Shown here in pieces: positions 26,616-37,871 of a stretch of DNA of 64,000 nucleotides. Under the pieces are notes generated by a model. That model searched no databases and had not been told where the DNA came from. It was given only the letters and a program-made list of their open reading frames with translations. The translations under genes were made by a program, and so were the position numbers. The stretch lies in the IMG/VR virus record IMGVR_UViG_2974784677_000001, one strand, 5' to 3'. Numbering within the stretch: position 1 is the first letter of the stretch; every line of letters begins with the position of its first letter. The DNA is from Thalassavirus gary (Duplodnaviria > Heunggongvirae > Uroviricota > Caudoviricetes > Demerecviridae).

Positions 26616-26644
26616 TTGCTAAGTGCTTTGAAACTTGATATAAT
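26616..26644 (+). promoter_or_regulatory. early promoter TTGCTA-17-TATAAT heading the tRNA cluster
   Basis: promoter family; followed by a 51-aa ORF (26675-26830) and then tRNAs. Confidence 0.55.
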
Positions 26645-26674
26645 AGTTCCATAAATTGATAAGGAATTGAAGAT

Positions 26675-26830
26675 ATGAAAAAACGTGGTAAAATTCAAAA
26701 GATTGCAATGTTCGCTCTTGGTTACGGTTCTAGTATTCCTCTAGCGAGTAAGAAATCTGGTTTAGGTTTACGTCGTACTAAGACTCTAGCTAAACATATT
26801 GCCGAAAACGGTTTTCGTATTCGAGACTAA
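26675..26830 (+). CDS. small hypothetical protein (51 aa)
   Basis: ATG at 26675 after leader with AAGGAAT; below ORF-track cutoff. Confidence 0.25.
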   Translation: MKKRGKIQKIAMFALGYGSSIPLASKKSGLGLRRTKTLAKHIAENGFRIRD

Positions 26831-26835
26831 ATAAT

Positions 26836-26912
26836 TGCGAGGATGGAGAAATGGCGTCTTGCGAGTTTCATAAGCTCGATAACGTGGGGTTCGAATCCTC
26901 ACCTCGCATCCA
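26836..26912 (+). tRNA. tRNA, anticodon CAT (Met/fMet or Ile2)
   Basis: acceptor TGCGAGG/CCTCGCA, T-loop GGTTCGAATCC, anticodon loop TTCATAA, 3' CCA encoded. Confidence 0.55.
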
Positions 26913-26918
26913 AATTAT

Positions 26919-26995
26919 GCGCGTGTAGCTCAGTTGGTTAGAGCATCTGACTTTTAATCAGGTGGTCGAAGGTTCGAGTCCTTCTACGCGCACCA
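26919..26995 (+). tRNA. tRNA-Lys (TTT)
   Basis: GCGCGTG.../TACGCGC acceptor, D-loop TAGCTCAGTTGGTTAGAGC, loop CTTTTAA, T-loop GGTTCGAGTCC, CCA. Confidence 0.75.
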
Positions 26996-27015
26996 AATTA
27001 CTCTAGGAGTGAAGA

Positions 27016-27186
27016 TATGTATTATCAAGGAGAGCGTATTGTTATAAAGAGATACGACCCTACTCAGGCACAAAAGCGAAAGCTATTTAAGCGTCTAGAG
27101 AAAAAGAAGTTAGTAGAAAAAGTGTCCACAGAGAAAGAATGGTTACGCTACAAAGTTCTACGAAACTTCGATGAAGTAAATTATTA
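27016..27186 (+). CDS. small hypothetical protein (56 aa) between tRNAs
   Basis: RBS AGGAGTGAAGAT then ATG; MYYQGERIVIKRYDPTQAQKRKLFKRLEKKK... Confidence 0.3.
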
Positions 27187-27192
27187 AACAAT

Positions 27193-27269
27193 TCTCGGGC
27201 AGACCATCTGGTTGAGTCACTACCCTTTCAAGGTAGGATTAGCGGGTTCAATTCCCGTCCCGAGAACCA
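27193..27269 (+). tRNA. tRNA-Glu (TTC)
   Basis: acceptor TCTCGGG/CCCGAGA, anticodon stem CTACC/GGTAG, loop CTTTCAA, CCA. Confidence 0.55.
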
Positions 27270-27275
27270 AATTAC

Positions 27276-27352
27276 GGGGAATTAGCTCTAATTGGGAGAG
27301 CACCTGCTTTGCACGCAGGGGGTTATCGGTTCGAATCCGTTATTCTCCACCA
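27276..27352 (+). tRNA. tRNA-Ala (TGC)
   Basis: anticodon arm CCTGC-TTTGCAC-GCAGG, T-loop GGTTCGAATCC, CCA. Confidence 0.7.
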
Positions 27353-27358
27353 AATTCT

Positions 27359-27435
27359 AGAGGCTTGGCTGAGTTGGTTATAGCGACTCCTTCATGCGGA
27401 GTAAGACGTGGGTTCGAGTCCCTCAGCCTCTACCA
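27359..27435 (+). tRNA. tRNA-Met (CAT), second CAT tRNA
   Basis: acceptor AGAGGCT/AGCCTCT, anticodon arm ACTCC-TTCATGC-GGAGT, T-loop GGTTCGAGTCC, CCA. Confidence 0.6.
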
Positions 27436-27443
27436 AGAATATT

Positions 27444-27451
27444 TATAAATA
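27444..27451 (+). promoter_or_regulatory. TATAAATA motif (T4-late-like / extended -10) upstream of the T5orf172-like ORF
   Basis: exact TATAAATA 13 nt before the ATG; no -35 because a tRNA lies upstream. Confidence 0.3.
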
Positions 27452-27463
27452 GGAATAACCTAT

Positions 27464-27997
27464 ATGCCAAAACTAGTTACAAACAATAGAAAACAAAACC
27501 TAGAGAAAATAGAAGAACTATTTCTCGAACGCCTAAAATCAGAAGGTATCACAGAAGCTCTAATGGGTAAGATGGTAAAAACCTTTTACGGTACAGCTCC
27601 TTGGTATTCTGCTAGAAGCAGAAAAGCACAGAAATCTCGTAGACAAATGTTCTACTACATGGGTCACTCTCTGCTACTACTATGCAAAAAACACAGTATA
27701 CCTACTAAAGCTGGTTTTGTGTACGCTGTAACTAATAAAACATTTCCAAACTGTGTAAAGTTGGGACACACAAAAGATTGTGAAGACCGACTAATGCAGT
27801 ACCAAACACATAGCCCACTAAAAGACTATGAAATGACTTGGCAGCAGTTCACCCTAGACTCTTATGCTGCAGAGCAGAAACTTCTTTCATTATTTGAGAG
27901 AATACGCCCTAACGGGGAGTGGGTAAGTCTACAAACTGAGGACACTTTAAAGTTGAAACAGTTACTAAATAAAAGTTTTAAAAGTTTGTCGTATTAA
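27464..27997 (+). CDS. T5orf172 / GIY-YIG-like domain protein embedded in the tRNA cluster
   Basis: GFVYAVTNKTFPNCVKLGHTKDCEDRLMQYQ matches the GIY..YIG..R pattern of GIY-YIG/T5orf172 domains. Confidence 0.5.
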   Translation: MPKLVTNNRKQNLEKIEELFLERLKSEGITEALMGKMVKTFYGTAPWYSARSRKAQKSRRQMFYYMGHSLLLLCKKHSIPTKAGFVYAVTNKTFPNCVKLGHTKDCEDRLMQYQTHSPLKDYEMTWQQFTLDSYAAEQKLLSLFERIRPNGEWVSLQTEDTLKLKQLLNKSFKSLSY

Positions 27998-28000
27998 ACG

Positions 28001-28078
28001 TCTATGGAGGGCGGCGGGATTGTAGACCCCGTGTTGCGAAAGCAGCTCCCTAGGTTCGATTCCTAGATGCGGCACCAT
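28001..28078 (+). tRNA. tRNA-like element (degenerate: T-arm and 3' CCA present, acceptor and anticodon arms do not fold canonically)
   Basis: T-arm CTAGG-TTCGATT-CCTAG then ATGCGGCACCA; central GTTGC-GAAA-GCAGC tetraloop hairpin instead of a 7-nt anticodon loop. Confidence 0.3.
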
Positions 28079-28083
28079 ATTTT

Positions 28084-28159
28084 GGGGGATTAACTCAGTG
28101 GTTAGAGTGGCATCCTGTTAAGTTGCTGGTCGGTGGTTCGAGTCCACCATCCCTCGCCA
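28084..28159 (+). tRNA. tRNA-Asn (GTT)
   Basis: acceptor GGGGGAT/ATCCCTC, D-loop TAACTCAGTGGTTAGAGT, loop CTGTTAA, T-arm GGTGG-TTCGAGT-CCACC, CCA. Confidence 0.6.
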
Positions 28160-28177
28160 TTTTAAGTTAAAAAGTAA

Positions 28178-28206
28178 TTGCTCAACTAGTTACTTTTCTG
28201 TATAAT
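28178..28206 (+). promoter_or_regulatory. early promoter TTGCTC-17-TATAAT with conserved leader
   Basis: leader AGTTACATAAAGTTGAGAAACGGAGATAACAAA. Confidence 0.6.
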
Positions 28207-28239
28207 AGTTACATAAAGTTGAGAAACGGAGATAACAAA

Positions 28240-28434
28240 TTGAATAAACTAGGGCGACTAAAAGAAGCTGTTAAAGAGATTCGTAACGATACTGTTCACA
28301 ATCTTCTAACCAAGCTTGTTAATGCTGGTGACATGAGACAAGCTCTCTACTTTACAGCAGGTTGTTTAATGTACATTGAGCACGACAAACGTGACCGTGT
28401 ACATCTAGAATACATTCGAGACATTTTGTTATAA
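28240..28434 (+). CDS. hypothetical protein (probable TTG start)
   Basis: ORF begins LNKLGRLKEAVKEI...; the track start at 28219 uses the TTG inside the conserved leader; TTG at 28240 follows the GGAG RBS. Confidence 0.35.
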   Translation: MNKLGRLKEAVKEIRNDTVHNLLTKLVNAGDMRQALYFTAGCLMYIEHDKRDRVHLEYIRDILL

Positions 28435-28443
28435 AAGAATTAT

Positions 28444-28521
28444 GCGGCTGTGTGCGAGATGGTTTAGGCAACCTCCCTGTCACGGAGGAGTACGTGGGTT
28501 CAAGTCCCATCGGTCGCGCCA
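28444..28521 (+). tRNA. tRNA-Asp (GTC)
   Basis: acceptor GCGGCTG/CGGTCGC (G-U pairs), anticodon arm CCTCC-CTGTCAC-GGAGG, T-loop GGTTCAAGTCC, CCA. Confidence 0.6.
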
Positions 28522-28530
28522 AATTTAAAG

Positions 28531-28827
28531 GTGAAGATAATGATTAAAGTAATTGCATGTGGTGAAGTTGTTGAGTTTGATAGCATTAATGACGCTTTCG
28601 ATGAAGTAGACTTCTGGGCAGAAGTAACAATGATTGATACTGAAACCAACACAGTATACTGCTACAACGAGCAAGGTGTTCTAGAACACACAGAAAAGCT
28701 AAGTGTACACAAGAATCTTTTCTCTAAAGAAGAAATGGAAATCGTTAAGTCAGCGCTAGAGTTCGCAAACAACAATTCAGAAGGCTTAACTAAGATGGTC
28801 ATTGAAAACATTATCAATAAGATTTAA
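28531..28827 (+). CDS. hypothetical acidic protein
   Basis: 98-aa ORF with RBS GGTGAAGAT. Confidence 0.4.
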   Translation: MKIMIKVIACGEVVEFDSINDAFDEVDFWAEVTMIDTETNTVYCYNEQGVLEHTEKLSVHKNLFSKEEMEIVKSALEFANNNSEGLTKMVIENIINKI

Positions 28828-28905
28828 CGGGGTGTAATGTCAGTCTGGTAGACGGCTCGCTTTGGATGCGAGAGGTCGCTGGTTCGAATCCAGCCTCCCC
28901 GACCA
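28828..28905 (+). tRNA. tRNA-Pro (TGG)
   Basis: anticodon arm CTCGC-TTTGGAT-GCGAG, T-arm GCTGG-TTCGAAT-CCAGC, CCA. Confidence 0.7.
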
Positions 28906-28909
28906 AATG

Positions 28910-29205
28910 AGGAAACAGTATCCTTGCTCAAATGGGTACTCACTGAGGGACGAGCAATCCCAATATGTGCGGGCTGTCTAGCATATGCAGCTTTCGGTTG
29001 AAGTCACATGTTTAGTAATGCAAACCCATTAGCTACGGCTTGGGAGCTTGCCACTTACTCGGTTAAGTCCAAGAACCGCTGTGGAATATGTAAAGTCGTG
29101 ATTCCTTCGGGATAGCGCCTTCGGAAGTTATCTTCTGACTGCTAGCAAGTCCATAGCTATAGACTGTTGCAAAAGGCCGCAACAGGGCAGTACAAAAGAT
29201 AATTT
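28910..29205 (+). ncRNA. candidate small stable RNA(s) inside the tRNA operon (about 300 nt, non-coding)
   Basis: No ORF with RBS; several short GC hairpins with UUCG loops (GATTCCTTCGGGATAGCGCCTTCGGAAGTTATC); flanked directly by tRNAs on the same strand. Confidence 0.35.
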
Positions 29206-29208
29206 AAT

Positions 29209-29293
29209 GCAGAAGTGGTGAAATTGGCAGCCACGCTAGATTTAGGTTCTAGTGCCTTCGGGCGTGAGGGTTCGAGTCCCTCCTTCTGTACCA
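29209..29293 (+). tRNA. tRNA-Leu (TAG), long variable arm
   Basis: acceptor GCAGAAG/CTTCTGT, anticodon arm CTAGA-TTTAGGT-TCTAG, variable arm TGCCTTCGGGCGT, T-loop GGTTCGAGTCC, CCA. Confidence 0.7.
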
Positions 29294-29299
29294 AACAAT

Positions 29300-29396
29300 G
29301 GAAGAGTAAGCCAACAGATTCTGGGTACTGGCAACTGTCTTGAAAACAGTCGATCCTTGAAAGGGTGTGTGGGTTCGAATCCCACTTCTTCCGCCA
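29300..29396 (+). tRNA. tRNA-Ser (TGA), long variable arm, unusually long D region
   Basis: acceptor GGAAGAG/TTCTTCC, anticodon arm ACTGT-CTTGAAA-ACAGT, variable arm CGATCCTTGAAAGGGTGTG, T-loop GGTTCGAATCC, CCA; 97 nt. Confidence 0.5.
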
Positions 29397-29403
29397 AATT
29401 AAT

Positions 29404-29490
29404 GCGTACTGAAGACTGAGTGGTCGGTCAGCAGCCTTCCAAGCTGTCGCTCCGAAAGGGGCTGGGGTTCGACTCCCCCTGTACGCTCCA
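29404..29490 (+). tRNA. type-II (long-arm) tRNA, anticodon ambiguous (loop CTTCCAA reads TCC)
   Basis: acceptor GCGTACT/TGTACGC, extra arm GCTCC-GAAA-GGGGC, T-loop GGTTCGACTCC, CCA. Confidence 0.45.
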
Positions 29491-29575
29491 ACTTTAGGAA
29501 CTAGACAAAGATACTGACATCTCTAGTTCGACGCTGAAAAATTGCCCGTCAGACGAATATAAATTAAAAACGTAA

Positions 29576-29604
29576 TTGCTAAACATCGCATTTTAACGTA
29601 TAAT
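29576..29604 (+). promoter_or_regulatory. early promoter TTGCTA-17-TATAAT with conserved leader
   Basis: leader AGTTACATAAAGTTGAGAAACGGAGATAATAA then ATG 29637. Confidence 0.6.
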
Positions 29605-29636
29605 AGTTACATAAAGTTGAGAAACGGAGATAATAA

Positions 29637-29873
29637 ATGGCAATTTCAAAAGTACCACAATCTGCACAGAAACAGCTTGAAACACTAATCCATGTGTTTG
29701 CAGCAGGTGACGGTGGCGTATCGTTATGTCACTTTAAGGCTAACTACGAAGCTATCGAACGCGATGCTTTAGCTGGTGATGAAAACTCAATCACTATTAT
29801 GGCAAAAGTGCAGGGCGTTATCAATCTAGTTCAACACCTAGCAGGTATTGACAACGATAATCTACAGTATTAA
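29637..29873 (+). CDS. hypothetical protein
   Basis: 78-aa ORF immediately after conserved leader. Confidence 0.45.
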   Translation: MAISKVPQSAQKQLETLIHVFAAGDGGVSLCHFKANYEAIERDALAGDENSITIMAKVQGVINLVQHLAGIDNDNLQY

Positions 29874-29950
29874 GCTTCCTTAGCTCCAATTGGCAGAGCA
29901 TCTGTTTTGTACTCAGAGGGTTGTCCGTTCGAATCGGACAGGGAGCACCA
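29874..29950 (+). tRNA. tRNA-Thr (TGT)
   Basis: acceptor GCTTCCT/AGGGAGC, D-arm GCTC-CAATTGGCA-GAGC, loop TTTGTAC, T-arm GTCCG-TTCGAAT-CGGAC, CCA. Confidence 0.6.
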
Positions 29951-29954
29951 TACA

Positions 29955-30105
29955 ACGTTATATAGTTACTACTCCATAGTGCCGCTCTACGATGCCAGAG
30001 AATAGGACTGTTGTACTGCGATAATGTTAAGCAGTTAAAAGAAGATGCATGAGTGACACCTACTGTGAGTGGTGTGACCTTCCCACTAGGAGAGTTGAAG
30101 TGGAT
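29955..30105 (+). ncRNA. candidate small RNA between tRNA-Thr and tRNA-Gln (about 150 nt, non-coding)
   Basis: no plausible plus-strand ORF; co-transcribed position inside the tRNA operon. Confidence 0.3.
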
Positions 30106-30108
30106 AAT

Positions 30109-30184
30109 AGCGAGGTAGTTTAATTGGTAAAACATCGGACTTTGACTCCGACGTCGGTGGGTTCAAATCCCCCTCTCGCCGCCA
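30109..30184 (+). tRNA. tRNA-Gln (TTG)
   Basis: D-arm GTTT-AATTGGTA-AAAC, anticodon arm TCGGA-CTTTGAC-TCCGA, T-loop GGTTCAAATCC, CCA. Confidence 0.6.
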
Positions 30185-30185
30185 T

Positions 30186-30261
30186 ACTCCCTTAGCTCAG
30201 TGTGTAGAGCACCTCCCTTACAAGGAGGGGGTCGTTGGTTCGAATCCAACAGGGAGTACCA
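30186..30261 (+). tRNA. tRNA-Val (TAC)
   Basis: acceptor ACTCCCT/AGGGAGT, anticodon arm CCTCC-CTTACAA-GGAGG, T-loop GGTTCGAATCC, CCA. Confidence 0.7.
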
Positions 30262-30347
30262 TCTCTAAATATCTTGTCCTAGCAACGCGAATCCAATGGA
30301 TGGGCAGGATGTTTACAAATGGTAACACAATAACAAAGGATGAAGAT

Positions 30348-30752
30348 ATGCAACTTGATGAAATGAAAGCAAAATTGCTAGAAGTACGTAAAGCTCGTAA
30401 CGCAGTAGGTAAAGCAGCAATGCAATCACTTATCGCTGATTTCGACAAACAAGCACGTACTGGTAAAGAAGTTGACGGTATGGCTCTTATCAAGAAATAT
30501 GTAGCTAATGCCAAAGGTAACATGCGTCTAGAAAAAGACCGTGGCAACACCGCAGGTTACGAAGCTTACCGCGCAGAAGTAGATTTCCTAGAAACTCTAT
30601 TGCCAAAGCAGCTAACCGAAGCAGAGCTTCGTGAAGTAATCGAAGGTGGCTGTTTCAATAACATTGGTCAAGTAATGAAGCACTTGCGTGAACATTACCA
30701 AGGTCAATACGATGGTGGTCTAGCGTCTAAAATCGCTCGTGAGGTTGTATGA
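30348..30752 (+). CDS. GatB/YqeY-domain protein (start taken at MQLDEMKAK after RBS AAGGATGAAGAT)
   Basis: C-terminal LTEAELREVIEGG...GQVMKHLREHYQGQYDGGLASKIAREVV resembles the YqeY/GatB C-terminal domain. Confidence 0.5.
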   Translation: MQLDEMKAKLLEVRKARNAVGKAAMQSLIADFDKQARTGKEVDGMALIKKYVANAKGNMRLEKDRGNTAGYEAYRAEVDFLETLLPKQLTEAELREVIEGGCFNNIGQVMKHLREHYQGQYDGGLASKIAREVV

Positions 30753-30979
30753 ACCCAGCAGAAGTAAAAGCTAAACTAGACATTCTTGATGGGGAGCTTA
30801 AAGACCTCACCATCAAAGCAAAAGTCCTAGCAGATAAGAAACGCGAGTGTGAGAACGAGAAAGCTCGCTTGCGAGTAATTCAACAATCTGCTTGCGACCA
30901 TCCAAGAGAAGCACGTAGTTCAGTTATGGTAAATAACGAACCCGAATACTTCTGTACATTGTGTGGAAAAGATTTTTAG
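30749..30979 (+). CDS. small zinc-ribbon protein
   Basis: 76 aa, C-terminal CDHP...CTLCG cysteine cluster; ATGA coupling to upstream gene. Confidence 0.35.
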   Translation: MNPAEVKAKLDILDGELKDLTIKAKVLADKKRECENEKARLRVIQQSACDHPREARSSVMVNNEPEYFCTLCGKDF

Positions 30980-31049
30980 GGCTGAGCCGGTGGCGGCAAA
31001 GAGGATTCCAAACCCTCCTACGTAGGTTCGACTCCTACCAGTTCTGCCA
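30978..31049 (+). tRNA. tRNA-Trp (CCA), compact D-arm
   Basis: acceptor AGGGCTG/CAGTTCT (G-U pairs), anticodon arm GAGGA-TTCCAAA-CCCTC, T-arm GTAGG-TTCGACT-CCTAC, CCA; 72 nt. Confidence 0.45.
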
Positions 31050-31067
31050 AATTTATTAAAAATGCGT

Positions 31068-31096
31068 TTGCAAAACACATATTAACTTGCTATAAT
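31068..31096 (+). promoter_or_regulatory. early promoter TTGCAA-17-TATAAT that reads directly into tRNA genes
   Basis: TTTGCAAAACACATATTAACTTGCTATAAT then leader CGCATAAATTAAGAAATA and tRNA-Ile. Confidence 0.55.
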
Positions 31097-31116
31097 ATAC
31101 GCATAAATTAAGAAAT

Positions 31117-31192
31117 ACTTCCGTAGCTCAGTTGGTAGAGCAAACGACCGATAATCGTTAGGTCACTGGTTCGACTCCAGTCGGGAGTACCA
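31117..31192 (+). tRNA. tRNA-Ile (GAT)
   Basis: acceptor ACTTCCG/CGGGAGT, anticodon arm AACGA-CCGATAA-TCGTT, T-arm CACTGG-TTCGACT-CCAGT, CCA. Confidence 0.7.
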
Positions 31193-31197
31193 ATTTT

Positions 31198-31290
31198 AGT
31201 TCCTTAGCTCAGTTGGTAGAGCAGCGGGTTTATACTCCGTAGCAACAGATAATTGGCTGGTCATGGGTTCGAGTCCCATAGGAACTACCA
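31198..31290 (+). tRNA. atypical 93-nt tRNA, anticodon loop TTTATAC (TAT), with a 22-nt extra region before the T-arm
   Basis: perfect acceptor AGTTCCT/AGGAACT, canonical D-arm TAGCTCAGTTGGTAGAGC, anticodon stem GCGGG/TCCGT, T-arm ATGGG-TTCGAGT-CCCAT, CCA. Confidence 0.5.
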
Positions 31291-31321
31291 TATTTTTAAC
31301 TAACAAAACAAGGACACTTAT

Positions 31322-32701
31322 ATGTCAACATTTATTATTGCAGGTGTATCAGCAGCAGTATTAGCGGTACTTTTTATCATTCTAGCACTAGTACGAACAG
31401 TAGTTCCTGCCAATGAGGTTCACATCCTCCAGACGGCACGAAAGACAACCTCGTATGGTAAAGGTCAAAAGAACGGTAACGTTTACTTTGATTGGCCAGC
31501 GTCTATCCCGTTACTAGGTAACGTGGTCACGACCTTACCGGTATCAGTGTTCAGTGTAGATCTTCATAGTTACGAAGCCTACGATGCTGACCGACTACCG
31601 TTTGTAGTTGATGTCACCGCGTTCTTCCGAATTGAAGACTCAAATACCGCAGCACAGCGTGTAAGTGACTTCCACGAGTTGCGAGAGCAATTAGAAGCAA
31701 TCTTACAAGGTGCTACCCGTACAATCCTAGCTGGTTCTACTATCGAAGAAATCATGCAAGGTCGTTCAGAATACGGTGATAAGTTTACAGCAGAAGTAAA
31801 TGGTCAACTAGCAGAATGGGGTGTACAAACAGTTAAGAATATCGAGCTAATGGATATTCGTGACGCAAATAGCTCTAACGTTATCAGCAACATCATGGCT
31901 AAGAAAAAGTCTGAAATCGAGAAAGACTCTCGTATCGAAGTAGCTAATAACAAACGTGCAGCTGAAATTGCAGAAACAGAAAACTCGCGCGAAGCAGAAC
32001 TAGCTGCTCAAGAGGCACAACAACAAGTAGGTATTCGTACTGCTGAGAAAAACCGTGAAATCGGTCTAGCCAAAGAAAAAGCAGAACAAGCGGTTCAGGA
32101 ATCAGCAAAAATCACTGCTGAACGTGAAATGGATGTTAAACGTGTTAACGATACACAAGCAGCTAACATCGCTAAACAGGTTACACAAACCCGTGCAGAA
32201 GAAAACAAAATTGAAGTAGAGCTAAACGCCCAAGCAGCTAAAGCTAAAATTATTCTAGAAGCTGACGCTAAGTTAGCACAAGATACCAAACTTGCAGAAG
32301 GTACTAAGATTAAAGCAGACGCAGACGCAGAACAGATTCGCCTAACTGGTGAAGCTAAAGCAGAAGCAGCTAAGAAACTAGAACTTGCAAGCGTTGAGCC
32401 TCAAATCGTCCTTGCTCAAGAAATCGGTGAGAACGAAGGCTACCAAAGATACCTAATCGAAATTCGTAAGGTAGAAGCAGATGAAAATGTTGGTCTAGAA
32501 CAGGCTAAAGCACTACAGACTGCTGAAATGAAAGTCATCGCTAACTCTGGTGACGTAAATGGTGGAGTTAACTCCCTTATGAACTTGCTAACACCTGATG
32601 GTGGTACTAAAATGGCAGGTTCTCTAGAAGCTCTAGCGCAATCTGATGTTGGTCAGGCGTTCTTAACCAAGATTGGCTTCGACATGGTTAACAAACAATA
32701 A
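31322..32701 (+). CDS. SPFH/band-7 (flotillin/YqiK-like) membrane protein
   Basis: N-terminal TM helix IIAGVSAAVLAVLFIILALV, SPFH-like core, long Ala/Glu/Lys-rich coiled coil. Confidence 0.55.
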   Translation: MSTFIIAGVSAAVLAVLFIILALVRTVVPANEVHILQTARKTTSYGKGQKNGNVYFDWPASIPLLGNVVTTLPVSVFSVDLHSYEAYDADRLPFVVDVTAFFRIEDSNTAAQRVSDFHELREQLEAILQGATRTILAGSTIEEIMQGRSEYGDKFTAEVNGQLAEWGVQTVKNIELMDIRDANSSNVISNIMAKKKSEIEKDSRIEVANNKRAAEIAETENSREAELAAQEAQQQVGIRTAEKNREIGLAKEKAEQAVQESAKITAEREMDVKRVNDTQAANIAKQVTQTRAEENKIEVELNAQAAKAKIILEADAKLAQDTKLAEGTKIKADADAEQIRLTGEAKAEAAKKLELASVEPQIVLAQEIGENEGYQRYLIEIRKVEADENVGLEQAKALQTAEMKVIANSGDVNGGVNSLMNLLTPDGGTKMAGSLEALAQSDVGQAFLTKIGFDMVNKQ

Positions 32702-32777
32702 GTAACACCAAAACCCGCAGGTAACACTGCGGGTATATAAAACAAAATTCTAATTATAAATATCATGGAGATACTAT

Positions 32778-32996
32778 ATGAAAACAGCTAACCTACTTAA
32801 ATTCGCATCAGAAAAAGCTTTCGTTGTTAACCGTCACAAGCGTTCTCAAGAAAAGTTGCGCTCTCAGTGCCAACGCTTGTTAAAGGCAGGTCGTTTAGTA
32901 GAAGTTGAGAAGACACATGATCAAGTCATGTATCGTACTCCAGAATCAGTAGAGCAAGACGCTATCGCAGCATCACATCTACGAGAAGAAGTTTAA
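32778..32996 (+). CDS. hypothetical protein
   Basis: 72-aa ORF with RBS GGAGATACTATATG. Confidence 0.4.
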   Translation: MKTANLLKFASEKAFVVNRHKRSQEKLRSQCQRLLKAGRLVEVEKTHDQVMYRTPESVEQDAIAASHLREEV

Positions 32997-32997
32997 A

Positions 32998-33073
32998 GCG
33001 GGAATAGCTCAGTAGGTAGAGCACTTGGTTGAAGACCTAGGTGTCGCTGGTTCAACTCCAGCTTCCCGCACCA
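32998..33073 (+). tRNA. tRNA-Phe (GAA)
   Basis: acceptor GCGGGAA/TTCCCGC, D-loop TAGCTCAGTAGGTAGAGC, loop TTGAAGA, T-loop GGTTCAACTCC, CCA. Confidence 0.7.
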
Positions 33074-33082
33074 CAATTTAAT

Positions 33083-33158
33083 GCAGCTATAGTTCAACTG
33101 GATAGAGCACCACCCTACGAAGGTGATAATCTAGGTTCGAGTCCTAGTAGCTGCGCCA
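33083..33158 (+). tRNA. tRNA-Arg (ACG)
   Basis: acceptor GCAGCTA/TAGCTGC, loop CTACGAA, T-arm CTAGG-TTCGAGT-CCTAG, CCA. Confidence 0.65.
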
Positions 33159-33181
33159 ATTTAATAAAATAGGAACAGAAG

Positions 33182-33469
33182 ATGATTACAGCAAAAGAAC
33201 TTCAAGCATTAAATGTAGCTAAACACATGCAAAACGAACAACGTGTTAGCGATGCCCTAGACAAAGCTCTTACAGGCGTTACACTTAACTATAATCAACG
33301 CACAGTTTCAGGTTTATATGTTCCTGGTCTTAAATCTACAGATAGACCTTATGTGGAGTCAATGATGCGTGACGCCGGATATGATCAAGTATCCTTTGTT
33401 GCACAGAATGATGGGCGTAACGGTACAGATGTTCATATCTCGTTTGTACTACCACCACAAGCAGAATAA
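33182..33469 (+). CDS. hypothetical protein
   Basis: 95-aa ORF with RBS GGAACAGAAGATG. Confidence 0.4.
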   Translation: MITAKELQALNVAKHMQNEQRVSDALDKALTGVTLNYNQRTVSGLYVPGLKSTDRPYVESMMRDAGYDQVSFVAQNDGRNGTDVHISFVLPPQAE

Positions 33470-33471
33470 TT

Positions 33472-33561
33472 GGAGAGATGCCTGAATTGGTTAAGGGAGC
33501 GGGTTGCTAACCCGTCGGCTGCTTCGGTGGTCTCTGGGTTCGAGTCCCAGTCTCTCCGCCA
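33472..33561 (+). tRNA. tRNA-Ser (GCT), long variable arm
   Basis: acceptor GGAGAGA/TCTCTCC, anticodon arm GCGGG-TTGCTAA-CCCGT, variable arm CGGCTGCTTCGGTGGTC, T-loop GGTTCGAGTCC, CCA. Confidence 0.7.
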
Positions 33562-33689
33562 AATTTAATATTGTTATAACCATAACAGAGTCCACGAGAA
33601 CTCCTAAGGATGCTCGAAGATGTTTTATTACTTTAATGACTTCTTTCCTGAAACTGTAACTCCCGTTACAGTCACAATAGGAGAGAAAC

Positions 33690-33893
33690 ATGTGGCGAAG
33701 ACACAAAGTAAGAGTAAATTGGCATCGCCGTCTAAAAGACGATGAAATTGCAAAAGAAAACGGTTTTAACCAACGCTTGTTCAAACAAACTGAAGTCTAT
33801 GAATATGACTTGTCTTGGTGGGACTACCCACATAGAACAGTACAGCGTAACTGGAAAAGCCAAACTAAGAACAGAAAACAATGGGAACGCTAG
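33690..33893 (+). CDS. hypothetical basic protein
   Basis: 67-aa ORF with RBS AGGAGAGAAACATG. Confidence 0.35.
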   Translation: MWRRHKVRVNWHRRLKDDEIAKENGFNQRLFKQTEVYEYDLSWWDYPHRTVQRNWKSQTKNRKQWER

Positions 33894-33918
33894 ACGTTCC
33901 CTTTCTTGTGGAGAATAT

Positions 33919-34464
33919 ATGAAGAATCAAATTTACCTAGCAGGCGATATGCTAAACCGTGGTGCTCAACTTCAACGAGCAGAAGAAAAACGTGATTTGC
34001 TTAATCTAGGGTACGAATTATACGTGCCACAGGATAATAAAGATATAAATGATAAAGAAAATCTTAACTCGAATGATGGTCTAGCAGAGAAAATTGTTCG
34101 TGCAGATACAGATGGTATCGTGAATTCTGATATCGTGGTCATGGAAGCTCGTGAAGCAGCTCTTGGTACTTGTATTGAACTTGGTCAGATTAAAGGCATG
34201 AAAGACGTCGCTAAAACAGTCTTGTCTATGCTAGAGTCTGGTTGCTCTCTTAAAGAAGTAATTCATAATATGGAGCAAATTCGTGATAAGCTTGTTCTAG
34301 TTCACAACTCAGATATTCGTCGTGCAGGTAATCCTACCGAAACAGGCGATCGTCGCAGCTATGCCCCTCACCAGTACATGTACGGTGTAGTGCTTGATGT
34401 AACCAACGGTCATGGTTACTACGATTGGAACGAAGTTACATACATCCTAGACCGAGGTGTATAA
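33919..34464 (+). CDS. nucleoside 2-deoxyribosyltransferase-like (NDT/Rcl fold) protein; start taken at MKNQIYLAGD after RBS GGAG
   Basis: IYLAGDM motif (NDT family YLAGP-like) and downstream acidic GTCIELG; track ORF starts further upstream at 33742. Confidence 0.45.
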   Translation: MKNQIYLAGDMLNRGAQLQRAEEKRDLLNLGYELYVPQDNKDINDKENLNSNDGLAEKIVRADTDGIVNSDIVVMEAREAALGTCIELGQIKGMKDVAKTVLSMLESGCSLKEVIHNMEQIRDKLVLVHNSDIRRAGNPTETGDRRSYAPHQYMYGVVLDVTNGHGYYDWNEVTYILDRGV

Positions 34465-35090
34465 TGTTAGAAAAGATTTGGTCAGTTATTGCGGTGCTCC
34501 TAGTAATCGGAGCATCAATCATCTCAGGGGCAGATTTGTTTGTGTCTGCCTTGAGTCTAGTAGGTATTCTGTTTGTACTAGGTGTCGCCTTTAAGCGACC
34601 AGAGTCACAGTTACTGGGTGCTGTATTCTGCGGGTTCTTGGCGTTTGCCTCGATGGGCGCAGGCTTTTATGCGAATGCAGTCGTTAATGGATTGATACTA
34701 ATCCCCGCCTCTATATATGGATATTTTCATTGGAAGCGAAGAAAAGGTTTTCAATTAGAGCAAAGTATGTCTAGTGGTGGACTCACTAATATGATTGTTT
34801 CATTAGTGGCCGTCACAGCATTAGTGTTCTTCTTTGGAACTATGGGAGCAGGTGGGGCTATGCCTCTACTAGATGCCCTAACTGGAGTCATGCCAGTATT
34901 TGCAACATTCTTAATGATTGGTGCATATCGAGAGCAATGGCTTCTATGGATACCCTTTAATGCAATACAAGCCTTTATGTGGTTTACCGCCGCGTCTTTG
35001 CAGCCTGCGGTACTGGCGGTGTTTGTGTTGAAACTGGTATTCTTGATTAATTCATTAATCGGATTTTATACTTGGAGAAAAGAGGCGTAA
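34464..35090 (+). CDS. pnuC: PnuC-like nicotinamide riboside/NMN transporter (multi-TM)
   Basis: 6-7 predicted TM helices, IYGYFHWKRRKG resembles the PnuC GW..W motif; TAATG coupling to upstream NDT-like gene. Confidence 0.5.
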   Translation: MLEKIWSVIAVLLVIGASIISGADLFVSALSLVGILFVLGVAFKRPESQLLGAVFCGFLAFASMGAGFYANAVVNGLILIPASIYGYFHWKRRKGFQLEQSMSSGGLTNMIVSLVAVTALVFFFGTMGAGGAMPLLDALTGVMPVFATFLMIGAYREQWLLWIPFNAIQAFMWFTAASLQPAVLAVFVLKLVFLINSLIGFYTWRKEA

Positions 35091-35101
35091 GCCTCTTTTT
35101 A
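35078..35101 (+). terminator. rho-independent terminator
   Basis: AGAGGCGTAAGCCTCT + TTTTT. Confidence 0.6.
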
Positions 35102-35111
35102 AAAAGTTTTA

Positions 35112-35140
35112 TTTGCTAACTTCTCTTATTTAACGTATAA
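35112..35140 (+). promoter_or_regulatory. early promoter TTGCTA-17-TATAAT
   Basis: promoter family; leader AGTTATATAAATTGATGAGAGAGG. Confidence 0.6.
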
Positions 35141-35172
35141 TAGTTATATAAATTGATGAGAGAGGTTATCAA

Positions 35173-35433
35173 ATGATTGAAGAATGGGGATGGGCAGAGG
35201 TTGCCGCTAAAATCTTAGGTCTTCCAGAAGAAACCGACGAAGAAGTTGTAGAACACCACCTACTACAGGAGTATGGTCTAGACTTGGAAGGTTTTGGTAA
35301 TGTAGCTGAGAAGCTACTAGGTATGACTGCACCTATGCGAACTGTACTTGGTAATGAGTTAGTACAAGCGTTCGTTGTAAATGATGAGCATGGTACTCGT
35401 GCTATCGTCAAACAGGAGTTCAAACGTGATTAA
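35173..35433 (+). CDS. hypothetical acidic protein
   Basis: 86-aa ORF after promoter. Confidence 0.4.
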   Translation: MIEEWGWAEVAAKILGLPEETDEEVVEHHLLQEYGLDLEGFGNVAEKLLGMTAPMRTVLGNELVQAFVVNDEHGTRAIVKQEFKRD

Positions 35434-35573
35434 TTTATCCCTAAAACAAGCAGAAGCTATGTTGGCTTTCCTTAATGACATTGAAGAAGAGAAAGGCAAT
35501 CTACTCCCACAAGAAGAAGAATTACAAGCCTATCTTGACGCAGCAATTGATGCTGAAAAAGATAAAAACTGAA

Positions 35574-35602
35574 TTGCTAACTAGCCTTAAAATCTGTATA
35601 AT
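35574..35602 (+). promoter_or_regulatory. early promoter TTGCTA-17-TATAAT with conserved leader
   Basis: AGTTACATAAAGTTGAGAAACGGAGATTGTTAATG. Confidence 0.6.
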
Positions 35603-35628
35603 AGTTACATAAAGTTGAGAAACGGAGA

Positions 35629-36123
35629 TTGTTAATGAGTAAAGCACTTTTTGATTTAGTAACTGAAATGCGTGAAAAAGACATGAAAGCGCATTCCCTA
35701 GCATTATCTTATTTGGAAGATTTTGATACCATGCTTCTGGTAGAGCCCACCAAGAAACTAGCCTCACCATCGCTAGAAAACAACTATCGTGGGCGTCTTG
35801 CACTGTACTTCGAGAAAGAATTTAGCCAGCATATGGCTATACCTGAATATCGTGGTACTTATATTAAAGAGTATAGTCTAGAAGGTATCGACTATGAAAA
35901 CCGGACTATTATGCTAGAAAGTTGGGTAGGTGATTCTTGTGAGACTCTACGAGTACCTGTATTTGACTTCGCCAAACTGCGTGAAATACAAGAAGTAGCA
36001 AACGAAATTGCAACCAAGCTTAATGTTTTCCATGAAAACAGAAAAGAAGAAAAAGAAGCCAAGGCTAAAGAAGAACGTCGTAACCAATATCTTGAACTTC
36101 AAAAGGAGTTTGGTGATGAGTAA
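35629..36123 (+). CDS. hypothetical protein
   Basis: 164-aa ORF right after the conserved leader. Confidence 0.45.
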   Translation: MLMSKALFDLVTEMREKDMKAHSLALSYLEDFDTMLLVEPTKKLASPSLENNYRGRLALYFEKEFSQHMAIPEYRGTYIKEYSLEGIDYENRTIMLESWVGDSCETLRVPVFDFAKLREIQEVANEIATKLNVFHENRKEEKEAKAKEERRNQYLELQKEFGDE

Positions 36124-36334
36124 AGTAGTTATCAGTGCAACAACCCTACAGAATCTTATCAATCTAGCCTATCTTGCGAAAGAATGGGCGGATAATGACG
36201 AAGATGGGCTAATTGCAGAAACAATTGCTTACGGTGAAGCAGCATTATCAGAAGCTTCGCCTTATGTCTTCACTAAAGAAGAATACGAGCAGCTAGAAAA
36301 ACATTTTGACTTGGAGGCATTCTTCAGTGAGTAG
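36116..36334 (+). CDS. hypothetical protein (start at MSKVVISAT)
   Basis: GTGATGAGT coupling with upstream gene; the track ORF extends upstream in another frame. Confidence 0.35.
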   Translation: MSKVVISATTLQNLINLAYLAKEWADNDEDGLIAETIAYGEAALSEASPYVFTKEEYEQLEKHFDLEAFFSE

Positions 36335-36479
36335 AAAAGAATTAGACTACTACTGGGAACAGATTCGTACCCTAGCAAATAAAATCGACTCTGGGGCTAT
36401 CCGACATGGTACTCAAGCAGAGCGTAACGATGCTCAAGAAATTAGACAGCTAGCAGAGGCTAGACTGAAAAGAAAATAA

Positions 36480-36556
36480 GGGTTGTATGCTGAAGTGGAC
36501 GAAGCGCGGGATTGCAAACCCCGTCTTACTCGGTTCGAGTCCGAGACTTCCCTCCA
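36480..36556 (+). tRNA. tRNA-Cys (GCA)
   Basis: anticodon arm CGGGA-TTGCAAA-CCCCG, T-arm CTCGG-TTCGAGT-CCGAG, CCA; acceptor stem has two U-U mismatches. Confidence 0.45.
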
Positions 36557-36574
36557 AATTAATTAAAAATGGAA

Positions 36575-36603
36575 TTGCTAAATAACTAAAAATTCCGTAT
36601 AAT
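36575..36603 (+). promoter_or_regulatory. early promoter TTGCTA-17-TATAAT with conserved leader, driving a non-coding transcript and tRNA-His
   Basis: TTGCTAAATAACTAAAAATTCCGTATAATAGTTACATAAAGTTGAGAGAG. Confidence 0.6.
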
Positions 36604-36604
36604 A

Positions 36605-36868
36605 GTTACATAAAGTTGAGAGAGTCAAGTAAGCGCGGTAACTGGCGTAATGTAGTCACTACTTCGTGGATTGTAATTCTTTCTCGACTTGTCACATTAA
36701 AACATTCTTGAATTGTCTGGTGGAGTAAGAGCCGTCAGAAAAAGACAGAAAGCCGTGCTACTCACACTAGACTCTTACAGTGTTGGGTACGAAAGCCTGA
36801 ATAAGAATACGGTCAGGTCATGCCGTGGGGATAGCTACCTCTAGAGCTAACTGTGTAGAGTGTTTTAA
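36605..36868 (+). ncRNA. candidate structured ncRNA (about 260 nt) between promoter and tRNA-His
   Basis: no ORF; long-range complementarity TGTCACATTAAAACATTC (about 36686) with GAGTGTTTTAATGTGACG (about 36856) closes a roughly 170-nt domain; internal hairpins. Confidence 0.4.
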
Positions 36869-36869
36869 T

Positions 36870-36946
36870 GTGACGTTGGCTGAAGTGGGAATGGCTCTGG
36901 GTTGTGATTCCAGAATATGCGGGTTCGATCCCCGTACGTCACCCCA
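36870..36946 (+). tRNA. tRNA-His (GTG)
   Basis: acceptor GTGACGT/ACGTCAC, anticodon arm CTGGG-TTGTGAT-TCCAG, T-loop GGTTCGATCCC, CCA. Confidence 0.65.
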
Positions 36947-36965
36947 AATTTAATAGGAGATAACA

Positions 36966-37160
36966 ATGATTAAGAAAATCATTCGTCGTAATAAACAAAA
37001 ATTTACTGCAATCTTCAAAGAAGGTCGCACAATGTTCCCTCGTTACGAGTTTAATAACGTAACTTATCTAGGCAAAGCAAACGGTATTAACCTGTTCCGT
37101 GCTGATGAAGGCTTTGCTTACAAAGGTATGACTTTCTGTAACGAAGCGACTTGGTCTTAA
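36966..37160 (+). CDS. hypothetical protein
   Basis: 64-aa ORF with RBS AGGAGATAACAATG. Confidence 0.4.
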   Translation: MIKKIIRRNKQKFTAIFKEGRTMFPRYEFNNVTYLGKANGINLFRADEGFAYKGMTFCNEATWS

Positions 37161-37170
37161 ACAAATTAAT

Positions 37171-37255
37171 GCTCCGTGTGCCGACATCGCTCTTCTAAAG
37201 CGATACGTAAAACGTTGGGTGGACGTGAGAGGTTCGACTCCTCCACGGAGTGCCA
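37171..37255 (+). tRNA. tRNA-Arg (TCT) with extended variable region
   Basis: acceptor GCTCCGT/ACGGAGT, anticodon arm TCGCT-CTTCTAA-AGCGA, T-loop GGTTCGACTCC, CCA; 85 nt. Confidence 0.5.
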
Positions 37256-37438
37256 TTTTTATCGGAGAAGATTATGTTCACACTAGGCGTAATATGGCTA
37301 ATATTTCAAGGGATAACTTGTATTGCACTAGCCGATTGTAAAAGTGAAGACATGTGCAATAAAATCATGTGGATGCCAACTGTACTACGTTGGATTATCT
37401 TTACAGTCCCGTCATTAATTGTATGGGCTACTAAATAG
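37250..37438 (+). CDS. small membrane protein
   Basis: 62 aa, two hydrophobic helices. Confidence 0.35.
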   Translation: MPFLSEKIMFTLGVIWLIFQGITCIALADCKSEDMCNKIMWMPTVLRWIIFTVPSLIVWATK

Positions 37439-37447
37439 GGAGAAGAT

Positions 37448-37783
37448 ATGTCTTTCAAACGACAAGTAAAGTATGGTGTCTTTAGTCACAAAGATGCTGC
37501 TGTGCATTTAAGTAATGAAGAATACTTGCAGTTAGTATCCCTGATGTCAAAGATAGAAGAAAAACGCATGCAAAGTGGCAAAGCTCCAATTTCTGCGGTT
37601 GTTATTGACCAGAATACTTTAGGCAAAGAAGCATATGAAGCGGGCTTTAAAATAGTTGAAACAGCAGTAACTGCAAAACTTCAACGTGCTTGCACCCATC
37701 CAGAGTGGAAAACAGACTATGCTATAATGGGTGGATTCGATGTCCATACTTGCACTAAGTGCGGATACACAGAAACAAATTAA
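37448..37783 (+). CDS. hypothetical protein with C-terminal zinc ribbon
   Basis: CTHPEW...CTKCGYTETN. Confidence 0.4.
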   Translation: MSFKRQVKYGVFSHKDAAVHLSNEEYLQLVSLMSKIEEKRMQSGKAPISAVVIDQNTLGKEAYEAGFKIVETAVTAKLQRACTHPEWKTDYAIMGGFDVHTCTKCGYTETN

Positions 37784-37784
37784 T

Positions 37785-37871
37785 GCTGGCGTGGTGGAAT
37801 TGGTAATACACGTGGGACTTAAAATCCCATGCCCTAGAGGATTGAGAGTTCGAGTCTCTCCGCCAGTACCA
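37785..37871 (+). tRNA. tRNA-Leu (TAA), long variable arm
   Basis: acceptor GCTGGCG/CGCCAGT, anticodon arm TGGGA-CTTAAAA-TCCCA, T-loop GAGTTCGAGTCTC, CCA. Confidence 0.7.

Follow-up and report, generated by a model that had tools for sequence, protein, structure and literature searches.

Structured non-coding RNAs encoded among transfer RNA (tRNA) genes are a known kind of phage product. GOLLD, an ornate giant RNA of phages and prophages whose 14-mer nanocage structure has been solved, is phage-encoded, lies in tRNA islands where it abuts tRNAs, and has an elaborate fold with kissing loops and pseudoknots; ROOL and other RNAs, such as the Y RNA-like YrlA, are likewise structured and tied to phage tRNA islands. 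Species 1 and 2 of phage T4 (rnaC and rnaD) are stable small RNAs released by tRNA-type processing, and by annotation they stand directly beside a tRNA (tRNA-Arg) in the tRNA cluster. For phage T5, the record NC_005859 annotates eight RNAs (RNAI, RNAIII, RNAIV, RNA1, RNA2, RNA2H, RNA3 and RNAX) as "stable RNA with unknown functions". Here we describe an element of 303 nucleotides (nt) from Vibrio phage GRLPWR/Gary (Thalassavirus, Ermolyevavirinae, Demerecviridae), a T5-like phage infecting Vibrio harveyi. It occupies the whole non-tRNA interval between tRNA-Pro and tRNA-Leu in the stretch of 64,000 nt analysed here (the window), where a sequence-only reading had placed a non-coding insert at 28910–29205 and had suggested one or more small RNAs co-processed with the tRNAs. 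BLAST assigns the window to GRLPWR/Gary at 100% identity. Conservation, covariation and the flush tRNA ends support such a candidate, and comparison between phages indicates that the element is a modular, pseudoknotted non-coding RNA of the + strand under purifying selection. It is an RNA family new to Rfam 15, and it adds to the structured RNAs of phage tRNA islands a member with two pseudoknots and well-supported covariation, in which compensatory substitutions among homologues preserve ~84 base pairs.

The element is like GOLLD in its setting and in the elaboration of its predicted fold but differs in size (230–340 nt among phages, with a minimum of ~230 nt, versus >800 nt) and has no sequence or structure match to the GOLLD family, RF02032. 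Judged by spacing, it is positioned upstream of the GOLLD 5′ domain and not inside it, and it also occurs alone in genomes without GOLLD. With the T5 stable RNAs it shares the Demerecviridae, the tRNA gene region and a placement flush with tRNAs, whereas the T4 RNAs, similar in their position, belong to another phage family and are 119–139 nt long. The T5 tRNA region gave no homology with our covariance models R1 and R2 (E ≥ 0.37) or with an nhmmer profile of the element, and the profile detected no similarity in the T4 region (the covariance models were applied to T5 only). Judged by these sequence comparisons, the stable RNAs of T5 and T4 are analogues of the element in function and position, not its relatives; the T4 precedent invoked by the sequence-only reading therefore stands as an analogy, with the T5 RNAs the closer one, and not as homology, of which none was found. 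Neither ROOL nor YrlA gave an Rfam match at threshold, YrlA appearing only below threshold and overlapping tRNAs elsewhere in the window. In the literature we found no paper describing the element.

The evidence for the fold comes from alignments of homologues, in which the fraction of paired cells was compared with a slid-partner control, where pair partners are displaced by a few columns. The coordinates of all helices are collected in Table 1. In the 5′ module a closing helix, Px, encloses three hairpins, H1, H2 and H3. Among Ermolyevavirinae only, 99.0% of cells in this module are paired (33–42% in the slid control) and 8 pairs are changed on both sides; with Pogseptimavirus and phage D260 included, giving 12 sequences, the figure is 97.7% (34–40% when slid), and 18 of 26 pairs, a count that includes the pseudoknot PK1, are changed on both sides. 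Covariance model R1, which scores 114 bits at 28905–29000, was built from Ermolyevavirinae only and nevertheless detects the copies of Pogseptimavirus (27–29 bits) and D260 (42.6 bits).

Two pseudoknots are predicted within and beyond the 5′ module. PK1 is a kissing helix between the loops of H1 and H2, and four of its six pairs covary, the two strands reading UUGCAC/GUGCAA in pVp-1 and UUCACC/GGUGAA in D260. PK1 lay outside the covariance model, and the alignment was hence not fitted to it. PK2 is an H-type pseudoknot in which the H3 loop pairs with an AUAUGU sequence ~100 nt downstream. Its core of 6 base pairs (bp) is 100% paired in 12/12 sequences and contains two covarying positions: C-G is replaced by U-A in 5 sequences from two lineages, and A-U by G-C in phage JSF10, whose version of the helix has 9 bp. 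Taken jointly, H3 and PK2 are 89% paired, compared with 28–57% in the slid control.

Downstream of Px lies an optional middle domain, a three-way junction of helices H4, H5 and H6, that is 95.8% paired (32–44% when slid) with 11 pairs changed on both sides. It is found only in Ermolyevavirinae; in Pogseptimavirus, D260 and D239 its place is taken by a short hairpin. A variable linker follows, with indels of up to 37 nt between lineages. The UUCG-type hairpin loops singled out by the sequence-only reading belong largely to this part of the element: three UUCG motifs are present, two of which do cap hairpins (~29100–29119), sited in the least conserved, indel-rich part and outside the conserved core, while the third falls within a helix and junction. 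The G+C content, described in that reading as balanced, is 0.48 in the 5′ part of the element and 0.40 in the 3′ part.

The 3′ module consists of a long helix, H7, capped by hairpins H9 and H8, with the junction sequence CUAUAGA. Its pairing reaches 94.4%, versus 37–44% for slid partners, 10 pairs are changed on both sides, and RNAalifold recovers its helices independently. It is the most conserved part of the element, and the covariance model R2 scores 96–110 bits in Pogseptimavirus and in phage PVo5. In the window, R2 scores 101.5 bits at 29120–29208 on the + strand and 13 bits on the − strand, which, together with the G-U pairs in the helices, places the element on the + strand. The 5′ module and the 3′ module come apart in nature, and the plural used by the sequence-only reading, which spoke of small RNA(s), was apt in this respect: PVo5 keeps only the last ~90 nt, that is the 3′ module, between tRNA-Pro and tRNA-Leu. 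An all-against-all column scan for pairs linking the two modules returned 240 single-column coincidences and no consecutive runs, a result that is uninformative because the lineages are so few.

The element interval matches 63 phage records, all of them from Vibrio phages, and its homologues are confined to Vibrio-infecting Demerecviridae, at 70–100% identity. The sequence-only reading had taken unrelated or absent sequence in related phages as the mark of a plain spacer; what we find is neither, as the element is kept across at least five genera and its elaborate fold is supported by the covariation that the reading had suggested looking for. Full-length copies in Thalassavirus, Cetovirus, KIT04 and Vipunavirus always fall in the tRNA-Pro/tRNA-Leu interval. 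Ceto, Wyman and KIT04 retain the ~300-nt element even though their neighbouring tRNAs are only 6–9 nt apart. In Pogseptimavirus (X1, VspSw_1, SJ1 and PG07) a version of 234 nt directly follows tRNA-Gln, and D239 has a stand-alone full copy between two tRNAs (L023 3036–3338). In all lineages examined the element begins directly after the 3′ end of a tRNA or, in JSF10, a phage of V. cholerae, of a tRNA-like sequence. Its borders are a tRNA 3′ CCA on one side and the 5′ end of a tRNA or of GOLLD on the other. The element is single-copy in the 128-kb genome of the window phage. Exact-pattern scans of IMG/VR returned the same isolates again and no further relatives, and no copy was found in GTDB bacterial genomes. 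A similar scan of JGI metagenomes gave one match, which we take as chance given its G+C content of 61%, its lack of tRNAs and its poor pairing.

Several observations concern the surroundings of these copies. The small open reading frames (ORFs) between tRNAs of the window (27464–27997, 28219–28434, 28531–28827 and 29637–29873) are variably present among close relatives and absent in Ceto, Wyman and KIT04, which suggests that they are mobile or dispensable genes, unlike the retained RNA element. In VPT02 (L017 1311–2069) and JSF10 (L007 1302–1487), ORFs have been inserted at the very junction of the element's 3′ end with tRNA-Leu; insertion may favour the points where one processed RNA unit meets the next. 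The tRNA-like sequence just upstream of the JSF10 element (L007 ~905–981) has a T-arm (GGGUUCGACUCCC) and is not called by ARAGORN; CUA apparently occupies its anticodon position, and it could be an amber suppressor.

Neither a protein-coding gene nor a known RNA accounts for the interval. Its sole + strand ORF with an ATG start encodes 35 amino acids (aa) at 29008–29115; in pVp-1, VPT02 and JSF10 it measures only 10–13 aa, and Pogseptimavirus and D260 lack it altogether. It is therefore not conserved as coding sequence, in agreement with the sequence-only reading, which had seen no ORF with a ribosome-binding site on the transcribed strand. A scan of the element interval against the 4227 models of Rfam 15 at E ≤ 10 gave no family match, yielding only the tail of tRNA-Pro and a chance match to a snoRNA (19.5 bits, where the gathering score is 35); the ribozyme families of Rfam 15 (ribonuclease P (RNase P), group I and group II introns, small self-cleavers) gave no match in the element at the same E value. 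Across the whole window no family other than tRNA reached the Rfam threshold. The Rfam search proposed by the sequence-only reading thus identifies no known family, while the covariation shows that the interval is not spacer. The tRNA covariance model and ARAGORN detected no cloverleaf or T-arm in the element. In the deposited records of D260 and D239, strings of 30–60-aa "hypothetical protein" coding sequences run on both strands across GOLLD and the element, and almost certainly they are annotation errors.

Three further resemblances were considered and not upheld. By eye, the element is reminiscent of RNase P RNA or a group I intron (AAGUCC, an ACAAAAG...UUA tail and the pseudoknot topology), but the required pairings are not present and Rfam is negative. 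A riboswitch-like alternative, in which the 5′ strand of H7 pairs with sequence upstream, can be drawn as GAAG/CUUC in the window, AAAAGA/UCUUUU in Wyman and AAAUAAUAAC/GUUAUUAUUU in JSF10; these registers are non-homologous between lineages, and the idea is unsupported. Finally, pairing of the AAGUCC loops with the anticodon arm of tRNA-Gln (GGACUU) fails in X1, whose tRNA-Gln reads GGAAUU while its loop stays AAGUCC.

In sister phages the element is tightly associated with GOLLD, a physical linkage that is previously unreported. In a permissive Rfam scan of related loci, GOLLD was found in X1 at L008 1535–1955 (186 bits), an interval that corresponds to the conserved 3′ region, which is all that the Rfam model covers; the stretch between it and the element holds no tRNA, promoter-like site or sizeable + strand ORF. 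The whole element abuts the 5′ end of a full GOLLD in Pogseptimavirus and D260-like phages, and upstream of the GOLLDs of D239 and of V. crassostreae phages there is only a hairpin resembling the H7 stem. For the env-38 GOLLD, the 5′ domain comprises nt 1–420 and the RNA lies downstream of tRNA-Met (PMC12286853). We disfavour the idea that the element is itself the GOLLD 5′ domain, since the gap of 398–409 nt that separates it from the Rfam region would hold the whole 5′ domain, the GOLLD start motif comes after the element, and stand-alone copies exist. This conserved start (UUUUCGGCUGUAUCUGGUCGUUAGAAUAAUCUA..GAAAGGUAGGA) follows the element, or the H7-like hairpin, in all four lineages, and nt 10–38 of env-38 align, weakly (z ~2.5), just past the end of the element. 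The spacing argues that the element is a unit separate from the GOLLD 5′ domain, placed where a tRNA sits at the env-38 locus. The window phage itself has neither GOLLD nor ROOL in its 128-kb genome; RF02032 had no match at E ≤ 10 within the element, at E ≤ 1 across the window or at the gathering threshold in the rest of the genome. At the GOLLD loci of the alphaproteobacterial phages of Roseobacter (DSS3P8), Caulobacter (phiCbK) and Erythrobacter, the element was not found adjacent. As an observation in its own right, complete GOLLD RNAs occur in several Vibrio Demerecviridae, within L008 892–2065 (X1), L027 393–1477 (D260), L023 4345–5128 (D239) and L024 2268–3175 (70E35.6).

We consider it probable, though by no means settled, that the element is a discrete, multi-domain, pseudoknotted RNA of ~300 nt, excised by the tRNA-processing machinery and acting in trans as a folded RNA. 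It would be transcribed inside a polycistronic tRNA precursor, from which RNase P, in its established role in tRNA biology, would generate the 3′ end of the element by cutting at the 5′ end of tRNA-Leu, and 3′ maturation or trimming of tRNA-Pro would generate its 5′ end and free it as a discrete RNA. The freed RNA would belong to the same guild of folded trans-acting RNAs as GOLLD, ROOL and the T5 and T4 stable RNAs, and its invariant loops (AAGUCC twice, RAARGGCMGC and CUAUARAC) probably engage a macromolecule of host or phage that belongs to the translation machinery or the tRNA apparatus. Several points weigh against this proposal. The homologues represent ~8–9 independent lineages, all of them Vibrio phages, so that shuffle-based covariation statistics are inflated by relatedness; one alignment, A10, had been fitted to the nested helices of the model; and single-sequence folding energy is unremarkable (z = −1.5 on the + strand and −0.4 on the − strand), so that the case rests on comparison between phages. 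The slid-partner controls are a safer guide than the shuffle statistics, and together with the unmodelled PK1 and PK2 they constitute the most trustworthy evidence. In addition, the 3′ module alone in PVo5 and the H7-like hairpin alone, flush with GOLLD, in 70E35.6 and D239 copy 2 fit a processing signal acting in cis no less well than an RNA acting in trans.

Such a signal is the main rival explanation, one that we regard as unlikely but deserving of serious attention: the element, and above all the long-helix module at its 3′ end, would assist processing or maturation in cis and have no function once excised, either offering RNase III or RNase E a place to enter or standing in for an upstream tRNA, and thereby defining the 5′ end of tRNA-Leu or GOLLD or insulating their folding. 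H7 is an imperfect duplex of 18–25 bp, as such a role might call for, and it is the H7 stem-like hairpin alone that lies flush with the GOLLD start in 70E35.6, 234P1, 294E48.1 and D239 copy 2, in the position held by the whole element in X1 and D260 and by a tRNA at the env-38 locus (PMC12286853); retention of the 3′ module alone in PVo5 points the same way. However, two pseudoknots in the 5′ module and loops invariant across genera exceed the needs of a cleavage site, the apex of the 3′ module (H8, H9 and the junction) is sequence-conserved between subfamilies, and most other tRNA junctions in these clusters manage with spacers of 6–9 nt. In VPT02 and JSF10, moreover, the element is fully conserved though an ORF separates it from tRNA-Leu. 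A compact pseudoknotted fold with invariant unpaired nucleotides, located exactly at processing junctions, could also suggest a new ribozyme class, self-cleaving or engaged in processing, but the negative Rfam scan of ribozyme families, the failure of by-eye comparisons with the conserved regions of RNase P and the P3–P7 topology of group I introns, and the fact that the flanking tRNAs already supply processing sites make this very improbable. Equally improbable in our view is a functionless relic, the leader of a GOLLD locus that Ermolyevavirinae have lost, now hitch-hiking or slowly decaying. GOLLD does lie downstream of the element in Pogseptimavirus and D260 and is missing from the whole GRLPWR genome, but the GOLLD-less Ermolyevavirinae (four genera, 70–88% identity) keep the helices by compensatory changes and have gained a covarying middle domain of their own, which together argue for ongoing purifying selection, and in D239 a full copy standing alone between tRNAs coexists with a GOLLD locus. 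The reading of the element as plain spacer, a degenerate tRNA pseudogene or a gene for a small protein, which the 35-aa ORF and the abundance of small ORFs between tRNAs of the cluster might have suggested, is effectively refuted by the truncation or absence of that ORF in other lineages, the lack of any match to the tRNA model or by ARAGORN, the strong covariation, and the retention of the element while neighbouring small ORFs come and go.

The proposal of a trans-acting RNA has a more specific extension, which we regard as doubtful: the element may be a self-contained partner of the GOLLD class of nanocage RNAs (an adaptor, a cap or a cargo-recruiting module), or may itself multimerise, fused to GOLLD in some Vibrio phages and working alone in Thalassavirus. 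Its flush placement links it to an RNA with a solved nanocage structure, and if the extension were true, the element would offer a small, tractable entry to what the ornate tRNA-island RNAs do. The natural variants (3′ module alone, with or without the middle domain, with or without GOLLD) form a ready-made deletion series, and the phages that carry them are cultured, genetically tractable Vibrio phages.

With respect to transcription, the tRNA island on the + strand spans 26836–37871 and contains 21 tRNAs by ARAGORN, plus one by Rfam at 29300–29393. The element is encoded within this tRNA transcription unit with both ends flush to tRNA ends, as are the stable RNAs of T4 and T5. A consensus scan places a promoter-like site upstream of the first tRNA (Table 1); the next + strand site matching at 10/12 positions is at 29576–29604, with three weaker matches (9/12) at 26628–26657, 26667–26694 and 28382–28411. 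Between 26644 and 29576 on the + strand, the same scan found no 10/12 promoter match and no terminator-like site. The polycistronic transcript containing the element likely starts at the upstream promoter-like site.

Table 1. Positions of the element, its predicted parts and flanking features in the window, and copies and GOLLD-linked arrangements in related phages.
Feature	Coordinates	Strand	Basis and remarks
Promoter-like site upstream of first tRNA	26616..26644	+	TTGCTA-17-TATAAT; consensus scan only
tRNA-Pro(UGG)	28828..28905	+	Encoded CCA; ARAGORN, Rfam
Whole structured non-coding RNA element	28906..29208	+	303 nt, flush between tRNA-Pro CCA end and tRNA-Leu 5′ end; ARAGORN borders, homologues, covariance models
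5′ module core	28914..28999	+	Covariation in alignments
Closing helix Px	28914–28916/28997–28999	+	Covaries AAC/GUU with GAC/GUC
Hairpin H1	28917–28923/28934–28940	+	Covariation
PK1 kissing helix	28924..28957	+	H1 loop UUGCUC (28924–28929) with H2 loop GAGCAA (28952–28957); covariation
Hairpin H2	28947–28950/28958–28961	+	Covariation
Hairpin H3	28972–28977/28987–28992	+	Covariation
PK2 H-type pseudoknot	28981..29091	+	H3 loop 28981–28986 with AUAUGU 29086–29091; covariation
Optional middle domain, three-way junction	29004..29084	+	Covariation
Helix H4	29004–29008/29080–29084	+	Middle domain
H5, long variable hairpin	29014–29059	+	Middle domain
H6, loop AAGUCCAAG	29061–29064/29074–29077	+	Middle domain
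Variable linker with UUCG-capped hairpins	29095..29119	+	Alignment
3′ module	29125..29205	+	Covariation, RNAalifold
Long helix H7	29125–29142/29187–29205	+	18 bp, one bulge (A29192); covariation
Hairpin H9, loop AAGUCCAUA	29143–29146/29156–29159	+	Caps H7; covariation
Hairpin H8, loop AAAAGGCC	29164–29170/29179–29185	+	Caps H7; covariation
tRNA-Leu(UAG)	29209..29293	+	ARAGORN, Rfam
Thalassavirus copies			87–100% identity; one subgroup with 25-nt hairpin insert
Cetovirus copy			94% identity
KIT04 copy			83% identity
Vipunavirus pVp-1 and VPT02 copies			~72% identity
X1: tRNA-Gln, whole element, GOLLD	L008 892–1125 (element)		Gap to Rfam 3′ region 409 nt
D260: tRNA-Ser(GGA), element, GOLLD	L027 393–652 (element)		Gap 409 nt
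70E35.6, 234P1, 294E48.1: H7 stem-like hairpin only before GOLLD			Apex non-homologous to 3′ module; gap 399 nt
D239 copy 2: H7 stem-like hairpin only before GOLLD			Gap 398 nt

The sequence-only reading had also pointed to a second, similar gap of about 150 nt at 29955–30105. Such a gap exists, at 29951–30108 between tRNA-Thr and tRNA-Gln, and its sequence is unrelated to the element. It is 98–100% conserved in Thalassavirus and 83–88% conserved in D260 and D239, two Vibrio phages that look unrelated, at the same tRNA-Thr/tRNA-Gln junction. A terminal hairpin (30086–30106) changes from CCACU/AGUGG to CUGCU/AGCAG and UUGUU/GACAA around the invariant loop AGGAGAGUUGA. The gap may encode a second small non-coding RNA, for which the evidence is suggestive only because the compensatory changes, confined to this one hairpin, come from three lineages and the folding z is −0.9.

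Some tRNAs of the island are unusual or are called by one method only. The class II tRNA-Ser at 29300–29393, missed by ARAGORN, scores 40 bits with Rfam and is annotated in Gary, and a weak tRNA-Trp candidate at 30978–31046, likewise missed by ARAGORN, has a sub-threshold score of 26.8 bits but carries a tRNA-Trp annotation in Gary. At 29404–29490 ARAGORN calls an 87-nt tRNA-Gly(UCC) with a long variable arm that the general Rfam tRNA model does not report; its best Rfam match is tRNA-Sec (42.7 bits, short of the tRNA-Sec threshold). It is unusual for a class II tRNA body to carry a glycine anticodon, and this one is kept in Ceto, KIT04, pVp-1 and PVo5. Finally, a tRNA of 93 nt at 31198–31290, called Ile(UAU) and scoring 62.7 bits with the Rfam tRNA model, is unusually long for an isoleucine tRNA.

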